This document shows, in pieces, positions 8,026-27,689 of a stretch of 64,000 nt of DNA. The translations under genes and the position numbers were made by a program. Position 1 is the stretch's first letter, and the number at the start of each line of letters is the position of its first letter. The notes beneath the pieces were generated by a model, which was not told where the DNA came from, searched no databases, and saw only the letters and a program-made list of their open reading frames with translations. The DNA is from Bythopirellula sp. (lineage in GTDB: Bacteria > Planctomycetota > Planctomycetia > Pirellulales > Lacipirellulaceae). The DNA lies in assembly GCA_965230685.1 (NCBI GenBank), contig CBDDLO010000002.1, positions 5,133,106 to 5,197,105 on the forward strand. The letters run 5' to 3'.

Positions 8026-11000
8026 TGCCGCTCTTCCTCGACAAGCTCCACTTGCTGGTGCTGCGACTCCACGACTTGCCGCGCTGCATCCAGACCGAGG
8101 GTCCAGAAGAGCGCGGGGCGCACCAGGAACTCGAGCAGTGTGCTACTCACTAATCCACCGATGATGACGGTAGCCACCGGATAGAGAATTTCTTTGCCAG
8201 GCTCGCCAGCGGCCATGGCGAGTGGGACCAAACCGATGCCGGAAGTCAGCGCCGTCATCAGCACCGGGGCCAGCCGGTCCTTGCCCGCGCGGACGGCCAT
8301 TTCGCGGGTCCACCGTTCACCTTCGTATTTCACCAGGTGTAGGTAATGATTGATTAGCAAGATGCCATTACGCGACGCAATTCCGCAGAGCGAAATAAAA
8401 CCCACCATGCTAGCAATTGTCAGTGTTTGACCGGTGAGATATAGCGAAGCGACACTGCCTATGAATGCCATAGGCAAGGCGACCATGACCTGCAGTGCGA
8501 GGTTCGACGACTGAAACATCGAATACAACACCAAAAACATTCCCACGAGCGATGCCAAGAACAGCATCGAAATCACGCGGGAGGCCGTTTGTTGGCTCTC
8601 GAACTGCCCGCCATACTCCACGAAATAGCCCGTGGGTAGTTCTGCAATGATCGGTCGCAGTCGCTCCTTGATTTCTTCCACCACATCAACGAGTCCCCGC
8701 CCAGTGACATTGCACTGCACGACGATACGGCGACGCACTTGCTCGCGGTTGACCGTATTGGGACCTGCCGCCTGATAGATTCGCGCAACGTCTTCCAACT
8801 TCACTCGCCCTCCGGTGGGGAGTTCAATTTGCAATCGTTTTAGCGCCGCCAGGTCCTCGCGTGCCTCTTCTCCAAGGCGAACCAGCAAATCGAAAGTCCG
8901 TTGGCCATCAACCACCTGCGAAATGACTTCGCCTTGCATAGCGGTTTCGATAAATTCGTTGACATCGTTGCGGCGCAGGCCGTAGGACTTGAGCTTCTCG
9001 CCATTGGCTTCAATGCGTAACTGGGGCACGAGCGTTTGCTGTTCGACCTGTAGGCCGCGCACACCTTCGACATCTGCAATGGCTGCTTCGATGCCTTGCG
9101 CCTCACGACGCAGCACATCGAGATCGTCGCCGAAGAGCTTGATCGCTACTTGCGCCTTCACTCCGGAAAGCATGTGAGAAATCAGATGTGCCAGCGGCTG
9201 CTCGACCGAGCTGACAATTCCCGGCACATCGGCCAGCGCTGCGCTGATTTCTTCAATGAGCTCTTCGCGTGATCGCTGTGAATGCGAGGTTACCGTGGCA
9301 ACAAACTCGGTGACATTCACGCCTTCGGCATGTTCGTCAAGTTCCGCTCGACCTGTCTTGCGTACGATGGTCTGCAAGTCTTCGATTTGAGCAAGTCGCT
9401 GCTCGACGCGAGTGGCAATTTCTGTTGAGGTGGCCAGCGACGTCCCGGGCGGGAGCAACACATTGATCTGCACCGCTCCTTCATTGAACGGCGGCAGAAA
9501 GTCGTTTTCCATTCGCAGGAGTCCCCACGTCGTGACTCCAACTGCAATTGTGGCAATCAGCAAGATCAGCCTGGGGAATTGCAAGCTGAATTGAATCGCA
9601 CCGCCCGCGAGGCGTTTTAGCCCACGCAGCAGAAACCCGTCTCGCTCCTCACTGGCGAGGGTCGACCCGCTGAGTAACCAATAACTCAGCACGGGGGTCA
9701 CCGTCAGCGAGACTAACAGCGAGGAAGCGATGGAAACGATGTACGATATTCCCAGCGGCGTGAAAAGTCGGCCTTCCATACCAGTGAGGGCGAACAACGG
9801 CACAAACACCAGGATGACGATCATCGTGCCGTAGACGATGGAATTACGCACTTCCAGGCTCGCCTGATAGACGACCAACAGGGGATTGCGCGGTGACTTT
9901 GCAAGTCGGTTTTCACGCAATCGGCGAAAGATGTTCTCGACATCGACAATGGCATCGTCAACCAATTCGCCAATGGCCACAGCGATGCCCCCCAAGGTCA
10001 TCGTGTTCACCGAGAGGCCAAAAGCCGCGAAGACTATCGCAGTCACAACGATCGACAACGGAATTGCGGTCAACGTGATGAATGTCGTCCGCAGGTTCAT
10101 CAGAAACAAGAACAATATGACGATCACCAGCAACGCTCCATCACGAAGTGCTTCCACCACATTCTCGAACGCTAAGTCGATAAACTCCTTCTGTTGGTAG
10201 AGGTTCGGAACGACTCGGACGTCCTCAGGCAATGACGTGGCTAGTTCTGCGAGTGCAGCGGTAACTCGGTTGGTCACCTCGCGTGTGTCAGCGTCCGGTT
10301 GCCGCATGACGGTCAGCAGCACCGCGGGACTGCCGGTCATTTTACCCGATTCATCGCGCACCGAAGCCGCGCTGTTCCCCCGTTTGACTTGAGGCCCCGT
10401 TTCGACGCGCGCTACCTGCGCAAGTGTGAGTGATTGGCCTTCTCGTTGCTTGATGACGATATCTCGAATCTGCTCGATGGTTTTCACGCGTCCCAGGGAC
10501 CGGACCAACATTTCCTGTGGCCCCTGTTGGTCTAAGTATCCGCCCGCAGCATTTTGATTACTTTCCTCGAGCGCTTGTTTCACTTCATGCAAAGTCACTC
10601 CATACTGAACCAACAAATCGGGGTCGACGAGGACCTGAAACTGTTTCCGATCGCCACCCATGACAATCACTTGCGAAACTCCAGGAATCGTCAAGAGTCG
10701 CTGCCGCACAACCCAATCAGCCAGGGTGCGCAGTTCCATCGGCGAAGTCGTGTCGCCTGCCGTCATGCCGACAACAAGAATCTGTCCCATGATGGAAGAA
10801 ATTGGCATCAGCTGCGGCTTCACATCCGGTGGAAGCGACGCAGACGCCAGCGCCATCCGCTCGGCAACGATCTGGCGATTGTTGTAGATATCGGTCCCCC
10901 AGTCGAACTCCACATAAACCACCGATAAGCCCACGCCTGAGGTGCTACGCACGTCCTGCACACCTGTCGCTCCGTTGAGCACTGTCTCCAGCGGAAACGT

Positions 11001-11195
11001 GATCAGGGTCTCCACCTCCTCAGGAGCCATACCATGCGCTTCGGTCAACAGGACGACGCGTGGTCTGTTCAAATTAGGAAAGACATCCACCGGCAGGCGC
11101 AGCGCCTGCCAGGTTCCCACGAAAGTAAGAAACAGCGCAGCAACAATCACCAGAAGGCGATTCTGCAGCGAGAACTTGATGATGGCATTGAACAT
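8022..11195 (-). CDS. czcA: Heavy-metal efflux RND transporter, CusA/CzcA family
   Basis: 1057 aa. The N-terminus MFNAIIKFSLQNRLLVIVAALFLTFVGTWQALRLPVDVFPNL is typical of HME-RND pumps. It has a 12-TM architecture with two large periplasmic loops, and the adaptor and OMF genes lie upstream. Confidence 0.9.
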   Translation of the reverse strand: MFNAIIKFSLQNRLLVIVAALFLTFVGTWQALRLPVDVFPNLNRPRVVLLTEAHGMAPEEVETLITFPLETVLNGATGVQDVRSTSGVGLSVVYVEFDWGTDIYNNRQIVAERMALASASLPPDVKPQLMPISSIMGQILVVGMTAGDTTSPMELRTLADWVVRQRLLTIPGVSQVIVMGGDRKQFQVLVDPDLLVQYGVTLHEVKQALEESNQNAAGGYLDQQGPQEMLVRSLGRVKTIEQIRDIVIKQREGQSLTLAQVARVETGPQVKRGNSAASVRDESGKMTGSPAVLLTVMRQPDADTREVTNRVTAALAELATSLPEDVRVVPNLYQQKEFIDLAFENVVEALRDGALLVIVILFLFLMNLRTTFITLTAIPLSIVVTAIVFAAFGLSVNTMTLGGIAVAIGELVDDAIVDVENIFRRLRENRLAKSPRNPLLVVYQASLEVRNSIVYGTMIVILVFVPLFALTGMEGRLFTPLGISYIVSIASSLLVSLTVTPVLSYWLLSGSTLASEERDGFLLRGLKRLAGGAIQFSLQFPRLILLIATIAVGVTTWGLLRMENDFLPPFNEGAVQINVLLPPGTSLATSTEIATRVEQRLAQIEDLQTIVRKTGRAELDEHAEGVNVTEFVATVTSHSQRSREELIEEISAALADVPGIVSSVEQPLAHLISHMLSGVKAQVAIKLFGDDLDVLRREAQGIEAAIADVEGVRGLQVEQQTLVPQLRIEANGEKLKSYGLRRNDVNEFIETAMQGEVISQVVDGQRTFDLLVRLGEEAREDLAALKRLQIELPTGGRVKLEDVARIYQAAGPNTVNREQVRRRIVVQCNVTGRGLVDVVEEIKERLRPIIAELPTGYFVEYGGQFESQQTASRVISMLFLASLVGMFLVLYSMFQSSNLALQVMVALPMAFIGSVASLYLTGQTLTIASMVGFISLCGIASRNGILLINHYLHLVKYEGERWTREMAVRAGKDRLAPVLMTALTSGIGLVPLAMAAGEPGKEILYPVATVIIGGLVSSTLLEFLVRPALFWTLGLDAARQVVESQHQQVELVEEERH

Positions 11196-11216
11196 TGATT
11201 AGATCAAAAAATGTTT

Positions 11217-12593
11217 TCAGTGGTTGTGGCCTGCGTGAGGGTCGGCCCCTCCACCCGCTTGGTTCTTCAACGAGAGGTGAATTTGGTAGGCCCCTTTCCC
11301 GGCGATGACGTTGCCAAACTTGAGTGCGCCGTCGCTTGCCACGACAATCTCATCTCGATCGCGGTGCAGCACGTGAACCGCCACTCGGTCAAAATGGTCT
11401 CCGTGTTGGTGATAGACGTAGGCCTCGGCGCCCTCATCCACCACAGCCGTAGCAGGCAACACAAGTTGATTTTCCCAAGTCTCGACCGGCACCTGGACCT
11501 GCATCCGCTGCCCCGGCTTGTAGAGCCACTCCACAAAGCGTTTGCCAGAAGTTGACGTTTTATCCGCGGCAAGTTTGTTAGGCAAACGCAGGTAAACCTT
11601 GAAGGCCCGAGAATCAGCGTCAATCTGGTCGGCGACATAGAGCACCTCGAGTCCAGTGACAGGAGCGTCCTGGCTCGATCCGCTCAAACGCCGCGCAACG
11701 ATCTCACGATTGGCTTCCGATGCCTGGCGAATTGCAAGCGCGTCATCTTCGAATGCCATGGCCTCGATCAGCAGTTCGCAGTGATCCCCAAGCACAGCCA
11801 ACGGACTGCCTGCTTCAACCTGCTGACCTTGTGCAACGTTTAGTTTCTGAACTTGATAAGGGTGTTCGCTAGCGCAACCCTGGTCGTGATTATCGTGGTC
11901 TGGAGTGCGTATTTCGATTTCCTGGAACAAGCGGCGCGTTCTACGAATTTCATCCACTTGAGCTTGGGCTAGTCCATGCAGGAGCATTGCCTGCGCCTCA
12001 GCGTGAAGAGAAGCCATGAGCTTCTGTTGTTCGTACTCTTGCTCGAGGATTCGCCGCCCGGCAATCACTCCTTCGCCGAGTGAGCGAAGCCTCTTTATTT
12101 CTCGGTTAACGACTTCGAGATTTTCGACATTCCGCAAGTACTCGCGCTGCGCCTCAACCAAATCTTCATGCGTTAGCTGCACCTTAAATATCAGCCGATC
12201 GGGATCGACGGCCTCACCTGTGATCGCGTTGATCTTGGTTACTGTACCCGTGAGCGGTGTGGATAAATGCAACTGCGAGCGTCCTGGGCTCTCCACAACT
12301 ATTGCCGGCAAAGTCAGCATCCGCTGATAGTCCATCGGCTCGACCACGAACGGCTCGAAACCAATGTTCTTGAGGCCGCGCTCGCTGAGCGCGATCACGT
12401 TTCCAGCTCCATGTTGCTCGTGATCATGCGATTTTTCTTGCGCATGTTGATCCAGCTTGTCGAGAATACTCGTTGGCCCGTCCGACGTCTCAAGCGGATA
12501 CCAGGAGCCCTTGGTAAGCACCGCCCCCGCGATGGCCAGGACCAACAGCCCTATCCACAATGGATTCTTATTTGAAGAACTACTATTTTTCAT
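11217..12593 (-). CDS. czcB: Efflux RND periplasmic adaptor (membrane fusion protein, CzcB/CusB-like)
   Basis: 458 aa with an N-terminal TM segment and a coiled-coil hairpin plus beta-barrel pattern. His-rich segments (HDHEQHGAG and the C-terminal GGGADPHAGHNH) suggest metal handling. It lies directly upstream of the RND pump. Confidence 0.8.
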   Translation of the reverse strand: MKNSSSSNKNPLWIGLLVLAIAGAVLTKGSWYPLETSDGPTSILDKLDQHAQEKSHDHEQHGAGNVIALSERGLKNIGFEPFVVEPMDYQRMLTLPAIVVESPGRSQLHLSTPLTGTVTKINAITGEAVDPDRLIFKVQLTHEDLVEAQREYLRNVENLEVVNREIKRLRSLGEGVIAGRRILEQEYEQQKLMASLHAEAQAMLLHGLAQAQVDEIRRTRRLFQEIEIRTPDHDNHDQGCASEHPYQVQKLNVAQGQQVEAGSPLAVLGDHCELLIEAMAFEDDALAIRQASEANREIVARRLSGSSQDAPVTGLEVLYVADQIDADSRAFKVYLRLPNKLAADKTSTSGKRFVEWLYKPGQRMQVQVPVETWENQLVLPATAVVDEGAEAYVYHQHGDHFDRVAVHVLHRDRDEIVVASDGALKFGNVIAGKGAYQIHLSLKNQAGGGADPHAGHNH

Positions 12594-12716
12594 TGAAGAC
12601 TCTCAAGAGCGGCTACCACAAAGTGCCCTTGCATTGATGGGTAAACACCAATGCCACTGGAAGACAATAAGCTCAGAAGAGCTGCCAAATCGACAGCTCG
12701 AGCGGAAGATGTAGAC

Positions 12717-13118
12717 TCAAAGCAGCAAGACTGAGATTGCAAGGTGCGCGCGCAGCCCCACCGAAAGCGATAAGTCAACCCTATAGGATCCACCGTAGAA
12801 CTTAGGGCTAGCAACATCGAAAGGAGCAATTACTACCGGTATGCAGGCAACCGCCAAGTATGAATTGCAATCCTTTACTACTCCGCGCGATGAGCCCCCA
12901 AGCCACTTGCAATCACAATGGCTGTCTTCACACGGCGCCGCTGGAACCGAATGCCGCGGCTGTTGGCCGTGGCTTGCTGTGCAGCCTGTTGTGTGGGACG
13001 CGTCAGATCGTGCAACCTCCGCATCCTGATAAGCCATCGCACAGGCCGAGTGTTCGCAACCCAGCAATGCATGGGTCAACACGGCGGCTGCAATCATACT
13101 ACGGACAACGTATTGCAT
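12717..13118 (-). CDS. Small Cys/His-rich putative periplasmic protein inside the czc operon (speculative)
   Basis: 133-aa ORF between the OMF and adaptor genes. It has a signal-like start (MIAAAVLTHALLGC) followed by CEHSAC...HTTGC...CEDSHCDC. No family recognised, and the coding status is uncertain. Confidence 0.3.
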   Translation of the reverse strand: MQYVVRSMIAAAVLTHALLGCEHSACAMAYQDAEVARSDASHTTGCTASHGQQPRHSVPAAPCEDSHCDCKWLGGSSRGVVKDCNSYLAVACIPVVIAPFDVASPKFYGGSYRVDLSLSVGLRAHLAISVLLL

Positions 13119-13224
13119 AGAAAAAAATGTTCGCGAAGCCAGAAGCTGAATCAGAATCGGGTAGCCCCTACTATTATCAGTTTACTTCACTCTCAGACAT
13201 TGGCCAGTGCAGCTTTTCTGCTGA

Positions 13225-14613
13225 TTAGCTGCTCAGAGGGCTATTGGCCTCAAAACTACCGTCGAGCAACAATCCCTCGATACGCAAATAGCTATTCCAG
13301 AGTTTCGACAGTGCGTCTAGATATGCTAGATGCGTCTGGGAGTAAATCCGTTGGGCAGTCAGGAAATCGAGATACCCGACCTCGCCTTGGGCGTAGCCTT
13401 GACGTACTAGTTCGAGTGTTCGCTCGGAGCGAGTGAGAATTTGGTCGGCATAAGTCTGTGCGGTGATCCGCGCGTCGGAGAACTCACGAAATGCGTTTAC
13501 CAATCGCCGCTGCAGGTTTTTTTCCACTCGATCAACATTGCGGGCCGCCTGGGTGACCTCTGCACGTGCGCGGCAGATACCGCCTTGATTGCGATTCCAG
13601 AGTGGTAGGGGAACACTTATCTGCACCCCCGTTAGCGTATCGCCATTGGAATCGTCGTGCTGAACGCTCACTTGTGCGCTGACATTGGGCACCGCCTCGA
13701 CACATTCGCGATGGAGCACCCGGCGACTTCGTTCGACCTGGGCCATCGCTGAGGCGAGTTCGGGGCTTGCAATTTGGACCTGCAATAATTGCTCTTCGTA
13801 GCTCAAGAGATCAGGCAGCTGGCCGACATCGCCCTCAAGAGGTTGCTGCACCAGGACTTCGCTGCCCACAAGCGTTTGTAACTGCCGCCAAGCTTGGTCG
13901 TATCCATTACGGCTCGTGCGCTCTAGGAGTTTGGCATTCTCGAGTTGCAGCTCGGTTTGCAGCAGGCCGGCTAGCGGAATTTCTTCGGCCTCGATCAGCG
14001 ACTGCGACGTTTTCGTGGCTTCGTCGGCAATGCGAACTAGATCTGCGGAGAAACGCCTGCGCTGTTGGGCCAAGAGGGCTTGATAGTACCCCAGACGAAC
14101 GTCGGTTCGCACTCGCTGAACGATCGTTGCCAACTCCTGCTCGGAGGCTGCGATCTCGGCACAAACAATCGCCCGGTTGCGCTGCAACTTCTTGGCAGTA
14201 ATGAACTGTTGTCCCGCAAAGCCACCCTGCTGCCCCGCGGACCCGTCTGCGCCAATCTCTGAGGCTAAATATCCGACCGTCGGATTCGGCGCGAGCCCCA
14301 CTTGCTTCCACTTCCCGTCGAGCGCACGCAGGCGAGCTTGGGCTTGGGCAATGGCGGGGTGGTTGGCCAATGCCAGTTCCTCAACAGTAGCGAGAGAGAG
14401 CCCCATCGAAAGAGGGAGTGTCTCCTCTGAGCTGACTTCCTCTGAGCTGACTTCCTCTGGAACATAGGGCAGGGGCACACCCACCGACTCTGCCAAGCTG
14501 CTCGGCTGCGTCACCACGGGCGTCGATTCATCGCCCTGGGCGCACTGCGCAGGTTGGACTGCTAGGCATGCCAGCAGCAATGCCATCGGTGCCAAATTGT
14601 TCCAATACTCCAT
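13225..14613 (-). CDS. czcC: TolC-family outer membrane efflux protein (CzcC-like)
   Basis: The ORF spans 13225..14661. The likely start is ATG 14613 (MEYWNNLAPMALLLACLAVQPAQC, a signal peptide). It shows two OEP-type repeats and is the first gene of the czcCBA-like operon. Confidence 0.8.
   Translation of the reverse strand: MEYWNNLAPMALLLACLAVQPAQCAQGDESTPVVTQPSSLAESVGVPLPYVPEEVSSEEVSSEETLPLSMGLSLATVEELALANHPAIAQAQARLRALDGKWKQVGLAPNPTVGYLASEIGADGSAGQQGGFAGQQFITAKKLQRNRAIVCAEIAASEQELATIVQRVRTDVRLGYYQALLAQQRRRFSADLVRIADEATKTSQSLIEAEEIPLAGLLQTELQLENAKLLERTSRNGYDQAWRQLQTLVGSEVLVQQPLEGDVGQLPDLLSYEEQLLQVQIASPELASAMAQVERSRRVLHRECVEAVPNVSAQVSVQHDDSNGDTLTGVQISVPLPLWNRNQGGICRARAEVTQAARNVDRVEKNLQRRLVNAFREFSDARITAQTYADQILTRSERTLELVRQGYAQGEVGYLDFLTAQRIYSQTHLAYLDALSKLWNSYLRIEGLLLDGSFEANSPLSS
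14423..14459. repeat. 15-bp tandem repeat (about 2.5 copies of tcctctgagctgact) inside czcC
   Basis: Read directly from the sequence. It encodes the duplicated EEVSS EEVSS in the OMF N-terminal linker. Confidence 0.8.
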
Positions 14614-14862
14614 TCGTCTGCCATCCTTGTCTGATCCACCTGTTTTATCGGCTTTCTCCACTGTGGAACACGAGCCAGTGGCTCTGTTGTCTGAAGCAAC
14701 GCTTGATGGACGGCGAGCTGGGTAAACTGCGCCAAGCTAGCGTGAGAATCCAACAAACACTTTGCATCGATACCGAAGTAGAGAGAAGTGACGCGACTGC
14801 TTGCTGAGCTTAAGGGTCACTCGCGATGTATCCCCCACGAATCTCCACCGAGAATCTCTCCC

Positions 14863-16077
14863 ATGAAACTTCCGCTTCGTAAAATGACTGTTTTCTTGCT
14901 AGCAATCGCTCTGCTGCATACTCAATCATCTGAGGCAAGTGCGGCTGGAGGTTTGGTGCCGGGTACGGGAACGCTGATCGACTACGTCGGGGACAATTTT
15001 GAGGATCCCTCATGGTCGTTCGTACACAACTTGCCTAAGAGCTCCCGAGAACAAGACGAACGGCTCCGATCGCCGACGGGAAAATCGACCAACGGTCGCT
15101 GGATCGAAGGCCCCGAGCGCGGTCATCCCGATCACATGAAAGTTGTGAAGAATCCCTCCGGTGCGTTGCCCGGTAGTGAATATGGGTTGCTAGTGCGAAC
15201 GCTGAACTCTGGTATTCCCGGCTATCGGTCGAACGACGTGCAACAAGACGACCTCATTGCCAACTGCATTTCGCGTTTGGGAATGAGCATTCCCGTGCGT
15301 GACATGCCCAGTGCCGTCGTACGAGTTTACTTGCCGCCGGCCGACCAATGGGAAAATCGCACAGGGCCACAATTCGGTTTTCGCATCAGCACTTCGACCA
15401 CTGTCACGGAGCTGGCCTCGCCGGGTCGCGGCTTCTTTTCGAGTTCTCGCACAACGACCAAACAAGAACCCTACTGGCCAGGACTGTGGATCCATTTCAA
15501 GAGCGAGACCAGTCGCAACGTGGAAGAAGACTCGGCGTTCTTGGCCTATCGTGGCAATCGCCAAGGTCGTGATATACGCTGCAAGGAGATCACCGCTGAC
15601 CAATTTGGCTGGTGGACTCTTGGAATCTCTGTGACCGGCGACGGGCAGATTCACTATTATGCCAAGCAAGGCGTGGAAGATCTCACTGCGGCTGATCATA
15701 TCACTTCGCAGTTCCCCTACAGTTTTCACGCGGAGCGGTTCCGCACGTTTTTCTTCAACGCTTGCAACAAGAACAATGGCAAGAGCTGGTCCACGCCCTT
15801 TATCATCGACGACCCGCAACTGTTCGTGGTTAACAGCTCGCAAGTGCTGGCCAACGTAAAGCGCAAGCAACAGCAAGAAGCCAACCGCAAAGCCCAGCGT
15901 GCTCGGCGCACCGCGCGGCGATCAAGCAAACAGACTGCGAGCAAGAATGCTAGCCAAGCGAAGTCGAACAGCAGTACCGCGTTGGCTACGGACCAAGCTT
16001 CCTCGAGTACTTCTCCAAAGTCCACTCAAACGGATTTCGCAAGTAAGCCCAAACTCAAAACCAATCTTGTACGCTAG
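14863..16077 (+). CDS. Hypothetical secreted protein with Lys/Ser/Ala/Gln-rich basic C-terminal tail
   Basis: The ORF spans 14788..16077. The probable start is Met at 14863 (MKLPLRKMTVFLLAIALLHTQSSEASA, a signal peptide). The globular body is followed by the tail KRKQQQEANRKAQRARRTARRSSKQ. Confidence 0.55.
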   Translation: MKLPLRKMTVFLLAIALLHTQSSEASAAGGLVPGTGTLIDYVGDNFEDPSWSFVHNLPKSSREQDERLRSPTGKSTNGRWIEGPERGHPDHMKVVKNPSGALPGSEYGLLVRTLNSGIPGYRSNDVQQDDLIANCISRLGMSIPVRDMPSAVVRVYLPPADQWENRTGPQFGFRISTSTTVTELASPGRGFFSSSRTTTKQEPYWPGLWIHFKSETSRNVEEDSAFLAYRGNRQGRDIRCKEITADQFGWWTLGISVTGDGQIHYYAKQGVEDLTAADHITSQFPYSFHAERFRTFFFNACNKNNGKSWSTPFIIDDPQLFVVNSSQVLANVKRKQQQEANRKAQRARRTARRSSKQTASKNASQAKSNSSTALATDQASSSTSPKSTQTDFASKPKLKTNLVR

Positions 16078-16131: not shown

Positions 16132-18378
16132 TTATCGAATCGGGGGCGTGGAGGCTCGATTTTTCAAAGATTTCAGCTTCTTGCTGTAAGCTTGCACAAG
16201 ACGCTGATTGCCTTGAGCTTGTGCCAACTTGAGTGCTCTTGATTGTGCGAGGATTGCTTTCTCGAACTGCTCGCCAGCCGCGTAGGCAAGGGCCAACGTA
16301 TCGAAAATCTCTGCATGGCTTGCCTTGGTTGAAGTGGCCAATTGTTCGGCCAGCGCGATCGCTTCGCTCACGTTTCGAGTACTCGGGTCGTCGGTCGTGG
16401 CCAACAGCTTCACCAAATTCACCGTTGCCGGGAGGGTTGCTTCGCTTTTTCTCATCGCTGAGCGAAAATGCGACTCTGCCTCGCCGGGCTTGCCCTGGTC
16501 CTGCAAGAGACGTCCTAAGTTGATGTGGGCGTTTGCATTGTCGGGTTCGAGCGCTAGCGCCTCGCGAAGTGGCTTTTCCGCGGCATGAAGTTGGCCATCC
16601 ACGGCGAGCATCGCGCCCAAGTTGATCCGTGCCCCCGCATCGTCGGAACGAAGATCGACGAAAGTTTGCATATGAGCGAGCGACTCTGCTTTTCGCCCCA
16701 ATTGAAATTCTACAGCCGACAACTGGTAGTAGGCATCGGCGAACTCGGGCTGGGATTCTACGGAACGCAAATAGTACTGGGCAGCTGTTTGCAGATCGCC
16801 CCTTTGGCGGAGGACATTGCCTAGCTGAAAATTGGCGCGGACCGTCTCTGGGGCGATTTGCAGTGCCGCGCGTAGCGCGTCCTCAGCTTTCGTCATTTTG
16901 CCCTGGTGGTAGAGCACATCGCCGAGTTGGGCGTGGAGGATTGCGCTTTGTGGCGCCCACTTCGTGGCGGTTTCCAAATGCCGCAAGGCTGCTGAGAACT
17001 TTTCTTCCGCGACGAGCATTCGTGTTATTTCAGCGGCAAAGGCGCTGTACTTGCTATCCCGGCTTAGCTTTTCTGCGTCATCTTCAAGGAATTGAGTAGC
17101 TACCTCGACAAATCCAAACTCAGCCAACTCGGCGGCCAGGCCGAGCGGGCGAAGTCGCAACGGTTGGCCAACCAGGCGCCCAGCGAAGGGCAGGGCGGCC
17201 TGGAAACGCTCGTCTCCCTGCAGCTCGAGAAATTCGATGTCTTTGAGTAACTGGTCCACATCGACGCGGCCTTTGTAAATTGCAGCGAGTTTTCCTGTAC
17301 CGTCAATCAGGAAGCTGGTTGGCACGGCTAGTGGACGGTCGGGCCCATAAACAAAATTTGTGATGACTTCCAAAGAGCCCACGAGCTGTGATGTTGCGGG
17401 TCCCGCGAGGAAGGGATAGCCCAAGCGCTCGAGCGTTGCTTGCTGAGCATCGCTACTAGCACCACGATCATCGCCCAAGCCATCGACGTTTGCTGCCACC
17501 ACAACCAGGCCAATACCGCGAACTTCTTCAGCCCGTTTTGAGATTTCAGAAAGCTCGGCAAGGCAGGGTTGGCACCAAGATCCCCAAAAGTTGAGCAGTA
17601 CGGGAGCTTGGCGAGTCGCGGTCAACTCAATCTGCTCAGCTTCATACGACATGAGCTTCAATCGAGGCAAGAGCAGGGGCTCCGTGAGCAGCGTGCGGCT
17701 TGCGGAAGATGAAGCAGCCGCGACATAACTCGACGGAGTCAACGCTGGGCCCTGTGAAGGCGGGGTCCACTTCTCGGCTTGGCCAGTACCTTGACGAATT
17801 CGATAATGGCCATCGGCCTCGACGCCGCTGATCGCTTCCGACTCTCCGCCAGGCCAGTGCACAACACATCGCTTCACTGCTGCGTTGTCACCTAAACCCA
17901 TGTGCAACCACTTCGACGACTGACCGAGAAATCCCTCCCCTGCTCTGAGCGTTCGTAGGATCGTGGTTTGCGAATCGTCAGCCAATTGCACCTCGACCCG
18001 AGCATTAATGGCGTCGCGGTTGCATTCCGTCCCTATCAGCCGGAGAGCAAGAAAATGGTGCTCCGGAGGAAGTTCGTTTCGTACGAAGCGAAGCATCGGC
18101 GCCGTACGGTTGGAGGTCCACACGTCGAGATCGCCGTCGTGGTCCCAATCAACCAAGGCGAGTCCGCGTCCATCGTCCAGGAAGTCGAGTCCCGTCACGC
18201 CTGAAACATTCGCAAATTTCGAGCCGCCCGTGTTCAGAAAGCAGCAATTTGCTTCGTGGCCACTCCACGAGATGCCCCGATCGAGCATCTTGTTGAGATT
18301 CACTACGCTCTGCACATATTCGGGTTCTAGAGCGTCTAAGCCCGCGCCCGTTGGCACTGTCTCGGGTGAATGCGACAC
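16132..18378 (-). CDS. ASPIC/UnbV + TlpA/ResA-like thioredoxin (WCQPC) + TPR-repeat protein. Probably the C-terminal part of one recoded or read-through protein with 18400..20478
   Basis: 748-aa ORF beginning at GTG. It opens with one more FG-GAP repeat (LALVDWDHDGDLDVWTSN). An ASPIC/UnbV pattern follows (NRDAINARVEV...GEGFLGQSSKWLHMGLG...VHWPGG), then the redoxin motif NFWGSWCQPCLAEL and about 8 TPR repeats. Confidence 0.8.
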   Translation of the reverse strand: MSHSPETVPTGAGLDALEPEYVQSVVNLNKMLDRGISWSGHEANCCFLNTGGSKFANVSGVTGLDFLDDGRGLALVDWDHDGDLDVWTSNRTAPMLRFVRNELPPEHHFLALRLIGTECNRDAINARVEVQLADDSQTTILRTLRAGEGFLGQSSKWLHMGLGDNAAVKRCVVHWPGGESEAISGVEADGHYRIRQGTGQAEKWTPPSQGPALTPSSYVAAASSSASRTLLTEPLLLPRLKLMSYEAEQIELTATRQAPVLLNFWGSWCQPCLAELSEISKRAEEVRGIGLVVVAANVDGLGDDRGASSDAQQATLERLGYPFLAGPATSQLVGSLEVITNFVYGPDRPLAVPTSFLIDGTGKLAAIYKGRVDVDQLLKDIEFLELQGDERFQAALPFAGRLVGQPLRLRPLGLAAELAEFGFVEVATQFLEDDAEKLSRDSKYSAFAAEITRMLVAEEKFSAALRHLETATKWAPQSAILHAQLGDVLYHQGKMTKAEDALRAALQIAPETVRANFQLGNVLRQRGDLQTAAQYYLRSVESQPEFADAYYQLSAVEFQLGRKAESLAHMQTFVDLRSDDAGARINLGAMLAVDGQLHAAEKPLREALALEPDNANAHINLGRLLQDQGKPGEAESHFRSAMRKSEATLPATVNLVKLLATTDDPSTRNVSEAIALAEQLATSTKASHAEIFDTLALAYAAGEQFEKAILAQSRALKLAQAQGNQRLVQAYSKKLKSLKNRASTPPIR

Positions 18379-18402
18379 GACCTGCCGCCAGAAGAAAGAT
18401 CA
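18372..18402 (-). promoter_or_regulatory. In-frame UGA followed by a SECIS-like hairpin (candidate selenocysteine recoding signal)
   Basis: The minus strand reads TGA tctttcttctg GCGGCA-GGUCG-UGUCGC. That is an 11-nt spacer followed by a 17-nt hairpin with a 6-bp stem (one G-U pair) and a 5-nt GGUCG loop. Confidence 0.45.
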
Positions 18403-20478
18403 CAAATCATCTACGGCATCGCCGGTGACGAAACCGTTCGTGACAAGCAAATCTTCCCAGCCATCGTTATTGATATCGGCAAAGAGCGACCCCCACGACC
18501 AACGTCCCTGGGTTACCCCGGCCTGTTCGCTGACATCGCGGAAGGTTCCGTCGCCTTGGTTCTCGAAGAGTGAGTTGCCTCGCGCCGTCCGTTGGTATTT
18601 CTCGCGCGCTTCGGAGGAAGAAGTGTCTCGAAATTGATCCTGAAAAGTGATACGATTCCCCGCCGCCGAGAACATGTTTCCCACATACATGTCCATCAAC
18701 CCGTCACGGTTGTAGTCTCCCCAGCTAACTGACATCCCGAAGGCGGCGTCGTCTAATCCTGCTGAGTTCGACACGCTGGTAAAGGTACCTCCGTCGTTTC
18801 GATACAACGAATTTCGTCCGAAATCGTTTGCAACATACAGGTCGAGATCGCCATCGTTGTCATAGTCTTCCCAGCTAGCCGCAAAGCTAAAGCGGTGGTT
18901 GTCCGCGTCGAATCCGACCTCGGCCGTCGCGTCGGTGAACTGCCACGGTCCCTCGCTGTCAGTTCCATCATTTCGCAAGAAAAAGTTCTCACCGCCATTG
19001 TTTGCGTCGTAAAAAGGATAGGGAACCGGGAACTCGCCTTTCTCGTGCCCCTCTTCGCGATGCCGACAGACATAGAGATCGAGATCTTTGTCGTTGTCGA
19101 AATCGGCGGCTGCAATCGAGTAGGCTGCTCTAATGGTTGGCAATTCGCTCCGCACGGTGAAGTGTCCTTTGCCGTTGTTCGAGAGAATCATCAGCTGATC
19201 ACTCACTGTCAGAACCAGATCCTGATCCCCATCGTTGTCGAGATCGACGAGCAATGCACCGTAGGTGTAGTTAATGAAATCGACGCCTGCCTCGGCGGCT
19301 ACGTCCTTAACCGTCCCATCAGGTTGCTGGATGAAAAGTGCGTTGGGTAGACCTCCAGGCTGGCTGAGATAGACATCTTCGCGTTCATCACCGTTGACAT
19401 CTCCCACGGCAAGTCCAATGTGGCCGTGGTATTGGATATTCAAATTACTGGGCAATCGTTCGCGCCAGTCACTGACGTTGTAAGCAAGTTGCTCGCGGTA
19501 ACGAGGGCTGTCTCCCAGAACCGCTTCCGTGCAGTCGGCAAACAAGGTGGGTTGTTCAATTCTTGCTGATGTCTGTTCAAAGTCGCTGACTTGGATGTGG
19601 GTCATCTGGACTCGATTGTCATCCAGAGTGCGCCAATGAAGCTCCCACGTAGAATTGATTTCCACCGGACCCGAAGGTGTCACCGCAAAGGCGTGGAAAT
19701 AAGCAGTGCTGCGGACCTTTCCTTCGTCGAGGTTGATACGGAACTGCTTAAATTTAACGGCGCGCTTCTCGGTCTCGCCAAGTTGTGAAAGCAGTTGGCC
19801 AACCGCATCGAGCAACCCTCCAGGTCCTCTGTAGATAGTCTGAGGCTGCTGAGCCGCATCTGCTGCAGTGCGGCGAACGTCCAGCACGCCGTCGGTGTAG
19901 ACCGAGACTCCATCGAGTTCATAAAGCGGTCCGCTCTGGAAATCGGCTGCCGCGATCTGTGAAATTTGCTCTGCAGTGGGTCCCATCGGCAGTTTCAAAA
20001 GTTTCGCCAACTGCTTCAGGCAAGCGTTGGTAGCCTCGCTGATGGATTCACTCTCCCAGCCATCTGCAGCCGGATCAAGCATCCGCTCATCCGCAGCCAA
20101 CATTTCTGAAGTTCGGCGAGTCGTCAACTCCTCGGTGAGGCTAACCTCCGTCAACGGAGCCTTCGCTGAATTCGCAGCAACTTTGCTTGGGCTCGCGGGT
20201 GCTTTTCTGGAGGAACCTAGCGAGCCGTCCTTCGCTTGGGGCGCGTTTGCGTTTCGACTCTCGTTCGCATCGGCAGCTAGAGTAGTGCCACTGCTTGCTG
20301 GACCACCAAGGTGGGGCTCTCGCTTGGCATCGCTATCGTTGTTGATCAGCTTTTGAACTAGCAGTGCACAAAGAACCAACCCAATTGCCAAGGTGCCAAT
20401 GAGGGCAAAGAGATTGTTACGCCCACCGGATGTTTGAGAACTTGGAGAATTCTGAGGACGGCGACTCATACACATCAC
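18400..20478 (-). CDS. Membrane-anchored FG-GAP/VCBS repeat protein (CRTAC1-like N-terminal part), ending at an in-frame TGA
   Basis: 692 aa with an N-terminal TM segment (LFALIGTLAIGLVLCALLV). Repeated Ca-binding FG-GAP motifs are present (DVNGDEREDVYL, DLDNDGDQDLVL, DFDNDKDLDLYV, DYDNDGDLDLYV, DYNRDGLMDMYV, DINNDGWEDLLV). Confidence 0.8.
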   Translation of the reverse strand: MMCMSRRPQNSPSSQTSGGRNNLFALIGTLAIGLVLCALLVQKLINNDSDAKREPHLGGPASSGTTLAADANESRNANAPQAKDGSLGSSRKAPASPSKVAANSAKAPLTEVSLTEELTTRRTSEMLAADERMLDPAADGWESESISEATNACLKQLAKLLKLPMGPTAEQISQIAAADFQSGPLYELDGVSVYTDGVLDVRRTAADAAQQPQTIYRGPGGLLDAVGQLLSQLGETEKRAVKFKQFRINLDEGKVRSTAYFHAFAVTPSGPVEINSTWELHWRTLDDNRVQMTHIQVSDFEQTSARIEQPTLFADCTEAVLGDSPRYREQLAYNVSDWRERLPSNLNIQYHGHIGLAVGDVNGDEREDVYLSQPGGLPNALFIQQPDGTVKDVAAEAGVDFINYTYGALLVDLDNDGDQDLVLTVSDQLMILSNNGKGHFTVRSELPTIRAAYSIAAADFDNDKDLDLYVCRHREEGHEKGEFPVPYPFYDANNGGENFFLRNDGTDSEGPWQFTDATAEVGFDADNHRFSFAASWEDYDNDGDLDLYVANDFGRNSLYRNDGGTFTSVSNSAGLDDAAFGMSVSWGDYNRDGLMDMYVGNMFSAAGNRITFQDQFRDTSSSEAREKYQRTARGNSLFENQGDGTFRDVSEQAGVTQGRWSWGSLFADINNDGWEDLLVTNGFVTGDAVDDL

Positions 20479-24119: not shown

Positions 24120-27100
24120 TCACGCTTCTTGCATTTTCGTGCTTCCGTCGGGCTTGCCGCGAAACCAATCCATGGGAAGGCAACCCAGCAGCATGACCAG
24201 CAATTGGCTGGCTACAAACACGCAGAGCCAGTAAGTCATGCCCTTACGAAAGCCGTAGGCGTGCAGGCCCTCGCCCATTTGGTTCACTCCAAACCAGGAC
24301 CATGCCGTCACGATATTGCCAAAGATTGCGAGGACTGCCATCCCGCGCTGGCGGATCATGGCTCCCCAGCGCGCGTGGAGTACCAAGGCGTTCCAAATCA
24401 CGATCATCAATGCGCCGTTTTCCTTAGGATCCCAACCCCAGAAGCGGCCCCAGGAATCGTCTGCCCAGAGTCCACCAAGCACCGTGCCAACGAAGCTAAA
24501 GAATGTGGCGAAGCAGAGTGTGCCGTAAATCATGCGTACCAGGTGGCGGCGTTGCTCGCTGTCTCGATTGCTACCGAGCCCATTGCCGACATGTGCCATG
24601 AGCACATAAACCAACCCCAGTGTTCCCGCCAGTAAGGTCGTCGAGTAGCCAAGTGTGATGCAAACCACGTGCGTAGCTAGCCAAAACTGGGTGTCGAGCA
24701 CCGCTTGGAGGACTTGGAACGTGTCCCCATCACCGGCCAGGTTGTAGGCGATGAACAACGTGGGAAAGCCAATCACCGCGGCCAACAGATTCCCTATGCC
24801 GAAGCGGTAGATTCGCTCGAACACTAACGCAAACAGCACAGCTGCCCAACCAATGAACACCGCTGAGGAATAGAGGTTTGTCACCGGTGGCCGGCCAGAA
24901 ATGTACACTCGGCAAACTAACGCGTAGGTATGCAAGATAAAGGTGAACCACAACAACCAATGGGCAGCTCGATTGAATGTCGTATGCCAGCCCAACCAGG
25001 AGCAGCCCGCAAGTACGAATGCCACAAGATAGAGCGCCATGGCTTTCGTGAACGGATTGAAGTGGTTGAAAAAAGCTTCGAATTGCACACGGCCGACTCG
25101 CAGCGTCTCCGCTGCTTTGCGTTGCAAGCCCGGGCCTGCACTGGCCAGCTCGGAATCGTATTCGGCATCGGCAGCCGCACGTTCTGCAACTATTTTTTCG
25201 TAGTCAGCAATTTCGGCATTGAACTTTTGCACGTCTTTCGCTGCGTAGGCATCAAGAATCGTGCGTAAGGCTATGGTTGCGGTGTTGACTTCTTTTTTTT
25301 GCACCTGCTGAAAAATCGCGTCGCGCTCGGCTTCCAGTATTGTCTGCCAGGGCGACCCAGCTTCGGTGGGCGGCACAGGGCGTGGGGCCGAGCTATTGAG
25401 ATGCTCAATCTGGCGGTTGACGACTTGGAAGTCCGCAATAAGCGCCTCTCTAGAATCCGTACGCACCGCCGGCGAGGAGAACGATTCTTGCAAGGTGTTG
25501 ATCAACACAACCTTGCGGGCTAAATCCATAAATTTCTTCTGTGGCAAAGTCCGTTTTTCGTCGGGCAGCTCTCGAGCTAGTTTGAACTGCCGCATATACT
25601 CCTCACCGCTCTCCTTGAGTTCCGCGAGGCTGTAGCGAAACCCGTCGCGCGGTTGCAGGTCGAGCGTTTGCAATACATCCAGGTTTTCGATCCGAAGGAT
25701 GCGATCATTCAGTGAGCCTTTCGACTCGGTGATGATGCCTAGAAGCCATTCGACGGCGGACTTCCCCTCCAAGCTTCCTTTGCCCGAGAGTACAGTCAGG
25801 GCGTTGCGTGCAAGGGTGTCAAACGGTTTGACACGCCCATTGTATGCTACCGGCAACTCGCCAAACTGGTGCACTTGCATTTCCGTAGCCGGCAACTTCG
25901 GCACACGCGCCCCGCCAAACACATAGCCAGCGAAGATCGCAAGAATCACCGCAGGCACCCAAACCGAGGGTGACTTCCAATTAGCAAGCAGCTCGCCAGC
26001 GCTCGTGCCTGTGGCTGCATCTGCGGGGACGGACTCACGAGCGGCGAACCGCAAAAACGTGCTACCAAATTGGTAGAACATGCCCATTCCCACCAGCATG
26101 CAGCTGACATAGGGGATCATCCAACCCGAGTTGGTCATCACCTGCAGCGTTGTGAGGTTAGGATTGTCGCGATCGAAACTAGCCTGGTACAGCGTGTCGC
26201 CTCGGTAGCGTAGCGGATTGTTCATCCAAATTTTGACTGTGCGATCCACATTCTGCTCGGAATCCAAGATTTGCACTTCTGAGGAAAAATTCTTCGGCGT
26301 CTCCGTGCCTGTGTAGACATCGTGGCGAAAGTCGATCAGCTTCACGGCATACGGCTTTTGCAACCGTTGGAATCGCAATGCAAGCTCGTAGGGCTGCCCT
26401 TCAATGCGGAGTGGTTCGCCCGAGGAGAACGGCGAGAGCAGGTAGCTTCCAAGGGAATCGGCGCTCTTCTTGTCGAGTAATTCGACGGTGAGCGCGGGGA
26501 GGTCGACACCCTGGTTCTGGCCGACGCCGACGTTGATTGCTTTCGATTCTGCGACTCGCAACGCGCCGGCGCCATGAGTGGCCAGCGTTTTCTCACCTGG
26601 CTGCGCAAAACGGACCTCGGCGTTTTGGTGATACTCGACCACTCGCAAGTCGAAGGGCAGGGAGTCGTGGCGAAAGAGTTCGCCGCTCTCCGCTGATTCG
26701 GAAAGCAGCTCGACTGGCACGACCGCGACTTGATCCTGCTCTGGATCCGATTTCTCGATGATGGCCAGCTCGACACTGCGAATGTCTTCCGAGTAGGTCT
26801 TTGTCTGCCCCTCGACGATTCGCATTTGCGATTCCTTCGCTTGCAGACCCGTCCACAATTCACTGAACATCAACAACGCAATTCCGCCATGCAGCAGCAC
26901 GATGCCCGCGCGCCGGCCAAACGTCCAATAGCATCCGGCCAGTAGTACAATCGCCGCGGCAAGGCCTTTGATGAGTTGCCACATGATTCGCAACCCCGAG
27001 TCGTCGAGCCGTAGTTCCGGGTGCGTGAATAGCCACAGCGCTAGTGCGGTCAGCGCCGCGCAAAACGCTGCACCCAGCCACCAAAGCCAATCCGTGCCAG

Positions 27101-27689
27101 ACCGTGTGAGTCGCCCATAGTTGATCGCCAACACATACCCCAAGCCCAACGTGCTCGCGCCGAGCGCAAACCGCAGTGCATGCCAAAGCCCATTGCAAAA
27201 CTGGGGCGAGAGTTCGCTTTCCACCGTATCGTCTAAGCCGCTTTGAATCACGAGCCACGTCAGCGCGATACCCGCGCCAAGCAATCCCAGCCCCACCCAA
27301 AGCGATTGACCGTTCGCAGTGATTTTGAATCGTAGTGTGTGCGCCGCGAGCAAGTTCGCACCTAATGCCGCTCCCAGCAGCCAACCGCCAGGGAACCATG
27401 TCCCGCCAGTCAAATTCCATGCCCGGGGAAAGAACACTTGAAAATCGATCCACGCGAACCACGTGCGAAAGTAGCTATGAACCACAAACCAAATGTCGTG
27501 ATCAATCTGCGCGAGCGTTCCGGCTAGGACCAGAATTATCGACAACGCAAACAGCACAACGGTGAGTCGCAGCGAAGCCAAGGGGAGCAGTAGGGTGCGA
27601 ATTGCAGTCCAGCTGCCAACGTTGGAGAGTTCGTGAACACGGTCGCCCAGACTGTCCTGCGAAAATTTACCTGCGTCGGTAGTGGACAT
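24120..27689 (-). CDS. ccsBA: Fused system II cytochrome c synthase CcsBA (ResB/Ccs1-like N-terminal part + CcsA C-terminal part)
   Basis: 1189 aa. The C-terminus has the tryptophan-rich WWD motif WGRFWGWDPKENGALMIVIWNALVLHARW plus multiple TM segments. The N-terminal part has TM segments flanking a large soluble loop, as in ResB. Confidence 0.8.
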   Translation of the reverse strand: MSTTDAGKFSQDSLGDRVHELSNVGSWTAIRTLLLPLASLRLTVVLFALSIILVLAGTLAQIDHDIWFVVHSYFRTWFAWIDFQVFFPRAWNLTGGTWFPGGWLLGAALGANLLAAHTLRFKITANGQSLWVGLGLLGAGIALTWLVIQSGLDDTVESELSPQFCNGLWHALRFALGASTLGLGYVLAINYGRLTRSGTDWLWWLGAAFCAALTALALWLFTHPELRLDDSGLRIMWQLIKGLAAAIVLLAGCYWTFGRRAGIVLLHGGIALLMFSELWTGLQAKESQMRIVEGQTKTYSEDIRSVELAIIEKSDPEQDQVAVVPVELLSESAESGELFRHDSLPFDLRVVEYHQNAEVRFAQPGEKTLATHGAGALRVAESKAINVGVGQNQGVDLPALTVELLDKKSADSLGSYLLSPFSSGEPLRIEGQPYELALRFQRLQKPYAVKLIDFRHDVYTGTETPKNFSSEVQILDSEQNVDRTVKIWMNNPLRYRGDTLYQASFDRDNPNLTTLQVMTNSGWMIPYVSCMLVGMGMFYQFGSTFLRFAARESVPADAATGTSAGELLANWKSPSVWVPAVILAIFAGYVFGGARVPKLPATEMQVHQFGELPVAYNGRVKPFDTLARNALTVLSGKGSLEGKSAVEWLLGIITESKGSLNDRILRIENLDVLQTLDLQPRDGFRYSLAELKESGEEYMRQFKLARELPDEKRTLPQKKFMDLARKVVLINTLQESFSSPAVRTDSREALIADFQVVNRQIEHLNSSAPRPVPPTEAGSPWQTILEAERDAIFQQVQKKEVNTATIALRTILDAYAAKDVQKFNAEIADYEKIVAERAAADAEYDSELASAGPGLQRKAAETLRVGRVQFEAFFNHFNPFTKAMALYLVAFVLAGCSWLGWHTTFNRAAHWLLWFTFILHTYALVCRVYISGRPPVTNLYSSAVFIGWAAVLFALVFERIYRFGIGNLLAAVIGFPTLFIAYNLAGDGDTFQVLQAVLDTQFWLATHVVCITLGYSTTLLAGTLGLVYVLMAHVGNGLGSNRDSEQRRHLVRMIYGTLCFATFFSFVGTVLGGLWADDSWGRFWGWDPKENGALMIVIWNALVLHARWGAMIRQRGMAVLAIFGNIVTAWSWFGVNQMGEGLHAYGFRKGMTYWLCVFVASQLLVMLLGCLPMDWFRGKPDGSTKMQEA

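Follow-up and report, generated by a model that had tools for sequence, protein, structure and literature searches.

Reading UGA as selenocysteine (Sec) under the direction of a bacterial selenocysteine insertion sequence (bSECIS) is textbook knowledge, and the decoding of UGA by means of a hairpin and SelB is established for fdhF of Escherichia coli. In the authentic E. coli fdhF gene, the TGA (codon 140) is followed, after 11 nt, by GGTTGCAGGTCTGCACC. ASPIC/FG-GAP split genes have been listed as selenoprotein candidates in two Planctomycetes, three in P1 and one in the Rhodopirellula P2 (Kim et al., 2016; PMC4807772, Table S9), and both planctomycetes have selA, selB, selC and selD (PMC4807772, Table S8). 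Three of the four candidates were positive in bSECISearch, and the closest sense-codon homolog has a Gly (PMC4807772, Table S9). Here, we describe an ASPIC/FG-GAP gene in a 64-kb stretch of DNA from Bythopirellula sp. (hereafter the window; all coordinates are positions in it). Two adjacent open reading frames (ORFs) of the minus strand almost certainly encode one membrane-anchored protein of about 1,448 residues, in which an in-frame UGA is read as Sec.

The in-frame UGA and the peptide across it

ORFs 18400..20478 and 16132..18378 lie in a common frame, and all that parts them is a single TGA (18402..18400) and seven codons (SFFWRQV), followed by the GTG chosen as a start by the ORF caller. 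The caller's start for the upstream ORF is a GTG at 20478, and the ATG of the read-through frame is at 20475. Public annotation has two proteins, P0001 (691 residues) and P0036 (748 residues); the junction peptide of the read-through protein is ...GDAVDDL-U-SFFWRQVVSHSPE. In Pfam, the part before the TGA matches FG-GAP repeats, and the part after it gives a weak further FG-GAP_3 match, UnbV_ASPIC, AhpC-TSA/Redoxin and tetratricopeptide repeats (TPRs). An earlier annotation of this DNA, made from the letters alone (the sequence-only reading), had claimed that the two ORFs share a frame split by TGA and SFFWRQV, that the domain series runs across the stop, with FG-GAP upstream and ASPIC downstream, and that the protein carries a CxxC thioredoxin module, WCQPC, near position 17560. 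Coordinates and translation bear out the first of these claims; Pfam agrees with the second, with the reserve just made for the downstream FG-GAP_3 match, and the module is present (Table 1). The hydrophobic N-terminal segment, preceded by RR, suggests export or membrane anchoring, and the protein would be anchored through it, with its body outside the cytoplasm.

When the read-through segment was used to search for homologs, over 100 distinct clusters were recovered at 56–80% identity, all of them ending at the same ...(D/G)DL. The DNA of relatives came from 80 loci of reference genomes, mostly metagenome-assembled genomes (MAGs) labelled Planctomycetota, Verrucomicrobiota or Acidobacteriota (Polarisedimenticolia, Thermoanaerobaculia, Holophagales), while single MAGs bore the label Proteobacteria or Enterobacteriaceae; the best locus of the reference-genome scan is only 48% identical. 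A TGA was found in 79 of the 82 junctions detected by the motif, as well as in L031 and in the divergent paralogs L021:4832 and L051:1584, and neither TAA nor TAG was seen at the Sec column among about 82 orthologous or paralogous stop sites from at least four phyla. The frame that follows each conserved TGA is open for 475 to 845 codons, and the downstream halves are annotated in the relatives as separate proteins, for instance as 'TPR', 'ASPIC/UnbV' or 'peroxiredoxin'. Members of the family occur widely among marine and soil bacteria. In the window, TGA ends six of 32 long ORFs (the read-through gene itself ends in TAA), and since it is an ordinary stop for other genes there, recoding would be site-specific and not due to a changed genetic code.

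The peptide SFFWRQVVS, after the UGA, is kept in nearly all relatives, and its first four codons vary freely at synonymous sites; Ser codons in this stretch switch between the AGY and TCN families while the residue is conserved. In homologs with a sense codon in place of the UGA, SFFWRQVVS is contiguous with the upstream peptide, which argues against two coupled genes with reinitiation at the GUG (see below). Among the 3,087 in-frame TGAs scanned in the flanks of the relatives, only further paralogs of the same family came to light.

Some genomes carry two or three tandem paralogs (L051:1584, L051:5629 and L051:9721; L011:578 and 7753; L021:4832 and ~7822), each with its own TGA and hairpin. 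Two Pirellulaceae MAGs, L017 (~7771) and L039 (~7720), have a Cys right before the UGA (..GDC-U-SFFWRQV..), a CU dipeptide that resembles several known selenoproteins; L-U is usual elsewhere. In 63 of 81 loci the gene is overlapped by long ORFs in antisense or in another frame (17963..18637 on the plus strand in the window; L042:2734-8085 on the minus strand), of up to 1,784 codons in a Thermoanaerobaculia MAG. Such overlaps probably arise as a side effect of G+C-rich codon structure.

The hairpin downstream of the UGA

The sequence-only reading had placed a 17-nt hairpin 11 nt after the UGA (18388..18372) and had likened it to a fdhF SECIS of 17 nt with 11-nt spacing, a GGUC loop and the heptamer GCAGGUC. 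Position and spacing are exact, and the comparison agrees with the authentic fdhF sequence: in both genes the UGA is followed, after exactly 11 nt, by a 17-nt hairpin whose loop begins GGUC, and the heptamer is shared. The window hairpin differs from that of fdhF in lacking the bulged U in the stem and in having a 5-nt instead of a 4-nt loop; it also lacks an extended lower helix like that of fdhF (−9.2 versus −14.2 kcal/mol over 40 nt), and, unlike fdhF, it encodes W-R-Q-V-V-S. Its recognition by SelB is proposed by analogy. The bSECIS model asks for a loop of 3–9 nt, a stem of 4–16 bp, a G in the first two loop positions, 16–37 nt from the UGA to the loop and a minimum free energy (MFE) of −7.5 kcal/mol or lower (PMC13188914). 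The window hairpin fits this model, with a loop of 5 nt (GGUCG), a stem of 6 bp and a spacing of 17 nt, its MFE being borderline when the 17-mer is folded in isolation (−7.3 kcal/mol; −9.2 in its 40-nt context). The window has 46 in-frame TGAs between frames of at least 80 and at least 40 codons, and such a hairpin follows this one alone.

Comparison of 78 distinct sequences showed that, within the hairpin, third-codon positions +21, +24, +27 and +30 have an entropy of 0–0.46 bits, versus ~1.5–1.95 elsewhere. At pair 18–28, GU (31 sequences), AU (30), GC (12), CG (3) and UG (1) are found, with one mismatch, and pairing is kept through changes from Ser to Pro to Ala. Pair 16–30 is CG in 75 sequences and AU in two; pair 20–26 is AU in 75 and GC in three. 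Overall, 98.5% of the hairpin cells are paired, with double compensatory changes at three pairs; the covariation score was matched by none of 500 shuffles, slid controls gave 12–67% pairing, and RNAalifold independently returned the same stem. In the divergent paralogs L021:4832 and L051:1584, the hairpin is formed from different sequences. As judged from these alignments, the hairpin is a selected RNA structure.

The DNA of six sense-codon homologs was also inspected. In five of them the stem is degraded, and in all six the loop reads GGUG, not GGUC; the loop C (+24) is present in 72 of 78 UGA genes versus none of the six sense-codon genes. P0011 (L085:1297), the closest Asp-bearing relative, has GAT at the Sec column together with a perfect 6-bp stem, a GGUGG loop and an intact CxxC, and its stem looks like a relic of the loss of Sec. 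P0014 (L086:1239) has TGG (Trp), one substitution away from TGA, with a partly decayed stem, and is an apparent relic of the same kind.

As a separate observation, divergent tandem copies of the gene build other stems, GGCGUGC-GGUC-GUGCGCU and CGGCA-GGUUC-UGCCG.

Selenocysteine and its alternatives

An exhaustive profile search returned 19,018 relatives at E ≤ 1e-30, of which about 128 sense-codon representatives that span the junction were scored at the Sec column. The residues found there include Glu (43), Asp (23), Ser (19), Ala (15), Asn (8), Gln (6), Met (4), Cys (3) and Gly (3), the three Cys forms being P0127, P0156 and P0185, so that a Sec/Cys pair exists in the family, if weakly. In a crude neighbour-joining tree, drawn without support values, all 69 Sec forms fall in one clade of 78 tips, within which sense forms are nested (five with Ser, and one each with Cys, Asp, Glu and Ala); this pattern, read from sequence, suggests a single gain of the Sec form followed by scattered losses.

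The Sec forms also share cysteines elsewhere in the protein. The CxxC of the redoxin domain is present in 69 of 69 read-through proteins versus 13 of 128 sense forms (Fisher p 3e-40, ignoring phylogeny). A Cys 52 residues after Sec (Cys+52) is found in 62 of the 69 Sec forms, in each of the three homologs whose Sec column holds Cys, and in only 12 of 129 other sense forms; when the forms with Sec or Cys at the column are taken together, the comparison is 65 of 72 versus 12 of 129 (Fisher p 5e-32, again ignoring phylogeny). In an AlphaFold model of a full-length sense-codon homolog, P0010 (pLDDT 86.5, pTM 0.89), a helix begins with the Sec column, directly after a propeller strand, another strand starts at the +52 column, and the equivalent of the CxxC lies at the N-terminus of the thioredoxin-fold helix. 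By this model, Sec would occupy the first residue of an α-helix at the junction of the propeller and ASPIC. The gene for P0010 (L084:5001-7760) lies directly after that of a 1,221-residue TPR/FG-GAP/ASPIC paralog (L084:1343-5008), with an 8-nt overlap, and tandem duplication is thus also common among non-Sec members.

We consider it highly probable that the UGA is recoded as Sec, in a SECIS-directed manner, within a single gene for a selenoprotein of about 1,448 residues. A Sec-UGA with an fdhF-like SECIS joining the two ORFs had been the central proposal of the sequence-only reading, and it is now supported by the conserved TGA, by the peptide across the stop, by a covarying hairpin that is lost in sense-codon homologs and by the fit to the bSECIS model. 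As a ribosome reaches the UGA, the hairpin 11 nt downstream would present its GGUC-type apical loop and, by analogy with fdhF, SelB-GTP-Sec-tRNA(Sec) would bind the loop; Sec would be inserted in place of termination and translation would run on through ASPIC, the TlpA/ResA-like CxxC redoxin domain and the TPRs. Without selenium or SelB, the expected product would be the 691-residue FG-GAP fragment.

What Sec may do in the protein is a matter on which we are more tentative. A redox relay, in which Sec and Cys+52 would form a selenenylsulfide couple, the tethered TlpA-like CxxC domain would recycle it and the TPRs would recruit a partner or substrate, is plausible, if somewhat short of probable. 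A related proposal, held with similar reserve, is that Sec arose at a column of Glu, Asp or Ser, and not of Cys, together with a new partner Cys at +52 and only in the lineage that keeps the tethered TlpA-like CxxC. What results would be a selenium redox centre formed de novo on a β-propeller scaffold outside the cytoplasm, widespread, and often in tandem, in marine and soil Planctomycetota, Verrucomicrobiota and Acidobacteriota; such a centre, if real, would be invisible to discovery pipelines based on Sec/Cys pairs.

A number of findings weigh against a Sec-based reading of the gene. Folding gives little help, in that the −7.3 kcal/mol of the isolated 17-mer is marginally weaker than the bSECIS cut-off of −7.5, the 71-nt region is no more stable than shuffled sequences (z = +1.31) and the hairpin is absent from the MFE structure of that region; the Rfam SECIS families were unmatched, both at the gathering score over the window and at E ≤ 10 over 18250..18500. 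Neither sel genes nor a tRNA-Sec turned up in the window or in about 0.9 Mb of the relatives' flanks (tblastn with E. coli SelA, SelB and SelD; tRNA-Sec search in the window). Sec is part of no recognised redox motif, neither UxxC nor CxxU, and the redox relay draws on co-occurrence statistics that ignore phylogeny. Most sense-codon homologs have Glu, Asp, Ser or Ala at the Sec column and not Cys, which is atypical of selenoproteins: 'nearly all' of these have Cys homologs, on which discovery pipelines depend (PMC13188914), and the rarity of Cys homologs is therefore unusual. A residue other than Cys at this column had been named at the outset as speaking against Sec, and it is indeed the common state (mostly Glu, Asp or Ser), but rare Cys homologs do occur and the other evidence outweighs this point. 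As for the hairpin, its support comes from the comparison with relatives, not from thermodynamics.

The alternative that survives best, although we regard it as quite unlikely, is a SelB-independent programmed read-through, in which the hairpin would stimulate near-cognate decoding of the UGA (e.g., as Trp, Cys or Arg) to yield the full-length protein without selenium. In its favour are the lack of sel genes in the window and in the relatives' flanks, and also the many residues accepted by sense-codon homologs, including the Trp (UGG) of P0014, which indicate that the position is not chemically demanding in the wider family. However, the hairpin has the 11-nt spacing and the GGUC loop of the SelB type, with a loop C that is nearly constant in UGA genes and absent from the sense-codon genes inspected, and the carriers listed in PMC4807772 have sel genes. 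Moreover, were a standard residue enough, one would expect the UGA to give way quickly to a sense codon, yet the UGA persists across phyla, and it co-occurs with Cys+52 and the CxxC as expected of a redox-active chalcogen.

Less likely still are two genuine genes, the UGA being a real stop from which ribosomes would reinitiate at the GUG (+25..+27) within the hairpin to make separate FG-GAP and ASPIC/redoxin/TPR proteins. In their favour, two ORFs are what gene callers report everywhere, and most sequences have GTG, ATG or TTG at +25..+27. Against them, where +25..+27 is ACG or GCG, neither of which is a start codon, position +20 changes so as to keep the base pair. Reinitiation also has no need of a TGA in particular, yet no TAA or TAG is found at the roughly 82 sites, and SFFWRQV evolves as protein, with synonymous changes and Ser codon-family switches, in agreement with the uninterrupted homologs, while the propeller blade and the domain architecture cross the junction. 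An artefact of sequencing or assembly, or the decay of an ordinary large gene through a recent nonsense mutation, would explain only the bare stop codon of a single sequence and is excluded for practical purposes by the same TGA, at the same column, in about 80 independent assemblies from several phyla, with both halves intact and under selection.

Gene layout, neighbourhood and relation to known proteins

The features of the gene whose UGA is most probably read as Sec are collected in Table 1. The redoxin CxPC is ordinary, and the proposed Sec lies 276 residues upstream of it, in a different domain.

Table 1. Coordinates in the window of the read-through gene and its parts
Feature	Position	Strand	Remarks
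Whole gene	16132..20475	−	~1,448 codons with a single in-frame TGA; ATG at 20475, TAA stop at 16134..16132
N-terminal hydrophobic segment LFALIGTLAIGLVLCALLV	20356..20412	−	preceded by RR; from translation; predicted signal anchor or signal peptide, with a putative topology
FG-GAP / Dx[DN]xDG repeat β-propeller region, CRTAC1-like	18403..19446	−	Pfam FG-GAP_3 1.5e-40, FG-GAP 3.2e-19
In-frame TGA, proposed Sec codon	18400..18402	−	context ...DDL-U-SFFWRQVVS...
11-nt spacer from UGA to hairpin	18389..18399	−	codons S-F-F and part of W; protein-level selection
SECIS-like hairpin GCGGCA-GGUCG-UGUCGC	18372..18388	−	17 nt, 6 bp, 5-nt loop starting GG; starts 11 nt after UGA
Candidate resolving Cys (HEAN-C-CFLN)	18244..18246	−	52 residues after Sec; co-conserved with Sec
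UnbV_ASPIC domain	17803..18012	−	Pfam PF07593 2.2e-14
TlpA/ResA-like thioredoxin-fold (redoxin) domain	17281..17667	−	Pfam AhpC-TSA and Redoxin; active-site C-Q-P-C (WCQPC) at 17574..17563
C-terminal TPR array	16213..17139	−	multiple Pfam TPR families, E 1e-12 to 1e-23

In the flanks of the relatives no conserved operon partner, such as CcdA or DsbD, was found; the clusters that recur there consist of family members or of ORFs overlapping them in antisense or in another frame. In the window, about 4 kb from the gene, a 1,189-residue fusion of ResB-like and CcsA-like parts, of the System II type of cytochrome c assembly, is encoded at 24120..27689 on the minus strand; its presence near a gene with a ResA/TlpA-like redoxin domain may be coincidence and does not recur in the flanks of the relatives. 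A complete RND efflux operon, with an outer-membrane factor, a HlyD-type adaptor and an AcrB-type pump, lies by the downstream end of the gene (8022..14661, minus strand), and between the two is an unannotated ORF on the plus strand (14788..16077). Three other long in-frame TGAs in the window were considered as selenoprotein genes and rejected, as they look like non-coding frames.

Like CRTAC1 and other ASPIC proteins, the window protein has an FG-GAP propeller, which in the family is a calcium-binding β-propeller, followed by UnbV_ASPIC, and with Pfam matches above the cut-off it belongs to this group. Its profile matches the CRTAC1 structure 9etn (2.5e-20), and the model of P0010 matches the same murine CRTAC1 structure in Foldseek (E 5e-27, TM 0.70 on the target). 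CRTAC1 differs in having no Sec, no redoxin domain and no TPRs, and does not align across the DL-U-SFFWRQVVS segment; the CRTAC1 papers that were found offered no functional clue to the Sec site. In three giant proteins of the library, P0121 (4,828 residues), P0122 (3,928) and P0131 (4,530), the FG-GAP/ASPIC profile matches in 18–34 separate stretches, so that each seems to string together many CRTAC1-like units in a single chain.

With TlpA and ResA the window protein shares the thioredoxin fold and a CxxC at the start of helix 1, and it can be counted among their relatives: ResA and TlpA are the best relatives of the redoxin domain in PDB by profile, and the P0010 model reaches a Foldseek TM of ~0.8 to ResA. 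The 'UGC TlpA family' and 'WAxxUGC ResA-like' selenoproteins contain Sec, whereas the redoxin domain of the window protein keeps CxPC and has only a weak NCBIfam match to WAxxUGC_long. Equivalog membership in ResA, TlpA, DsbE or WAxxUGC_long was rejected, at 39–46 bits versus NCBIfam cut-offs of 123–300, leaving a related domain only. NCBIfam has no model for the N-terminal half of the protein, and for the C-terminal half it gave only sub-threshold TPR and redoxin matches.

The candidates of Kim et al. (2016) have the same domain description as the window gene, are likewise annotated as two adjacent genes and have a closest sense homolog without Cys; their orthology with the window gene is our reading of this description. 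They occupy a line in a supplementary table, are absent from the text of that paper and come without alignment, covariation, distribution or functional analysis (PMC4807772). The label 'candidate undescribed selenoprotein', given by the sequence-only reading, must therefore be qualified, since candidates were listed before (PMC4807772, Table S9), but it stands in so far as the family is absent from the 2026 catalogue and from NCBIfam. ASPIC/FG-GAP is missing from the 119-family inventory of the 2026 review (PMC13188914), an ASPIC/FG-GAP selenoprotein family is not mentioned in BSepDB or deep-Sep, and nothing relevant came from full-text searches for a connection between selenoproteins and FG-GAP, ASPIC or CRTAC1.

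The family is best described as one that had previously only been flagged and that is atypical among selenoproteins, being made of very large, extracytoplasmic multidomain proteins with Sec outside any known motif and with mostly non-Cys homologs. If confirmed, it would expose a blind spot: such a family would seldom come up in methods that depend on an aligned Cys at the UGA, and annotation systematically splits the gene into two 'hypothetical/TPR/ASPIC' genes. The coupling of Sec, Cys+52 and a CxxC tethered in cis would, again if confirmed, provide a concrete redox hypothesis for the ASPIC/CRTAC1 scaffold, and the compact hairpin, close to the SECIS of fdhF, could be a convenient natural SECIS for the study of SelB recognition across phyla. 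To a catalogue of about 119 families, dominated by small thioredoxin-fold proteins of the UxxC/CxxU type, confirmation would add a large, multi-phylum and extracytoplasmic family.

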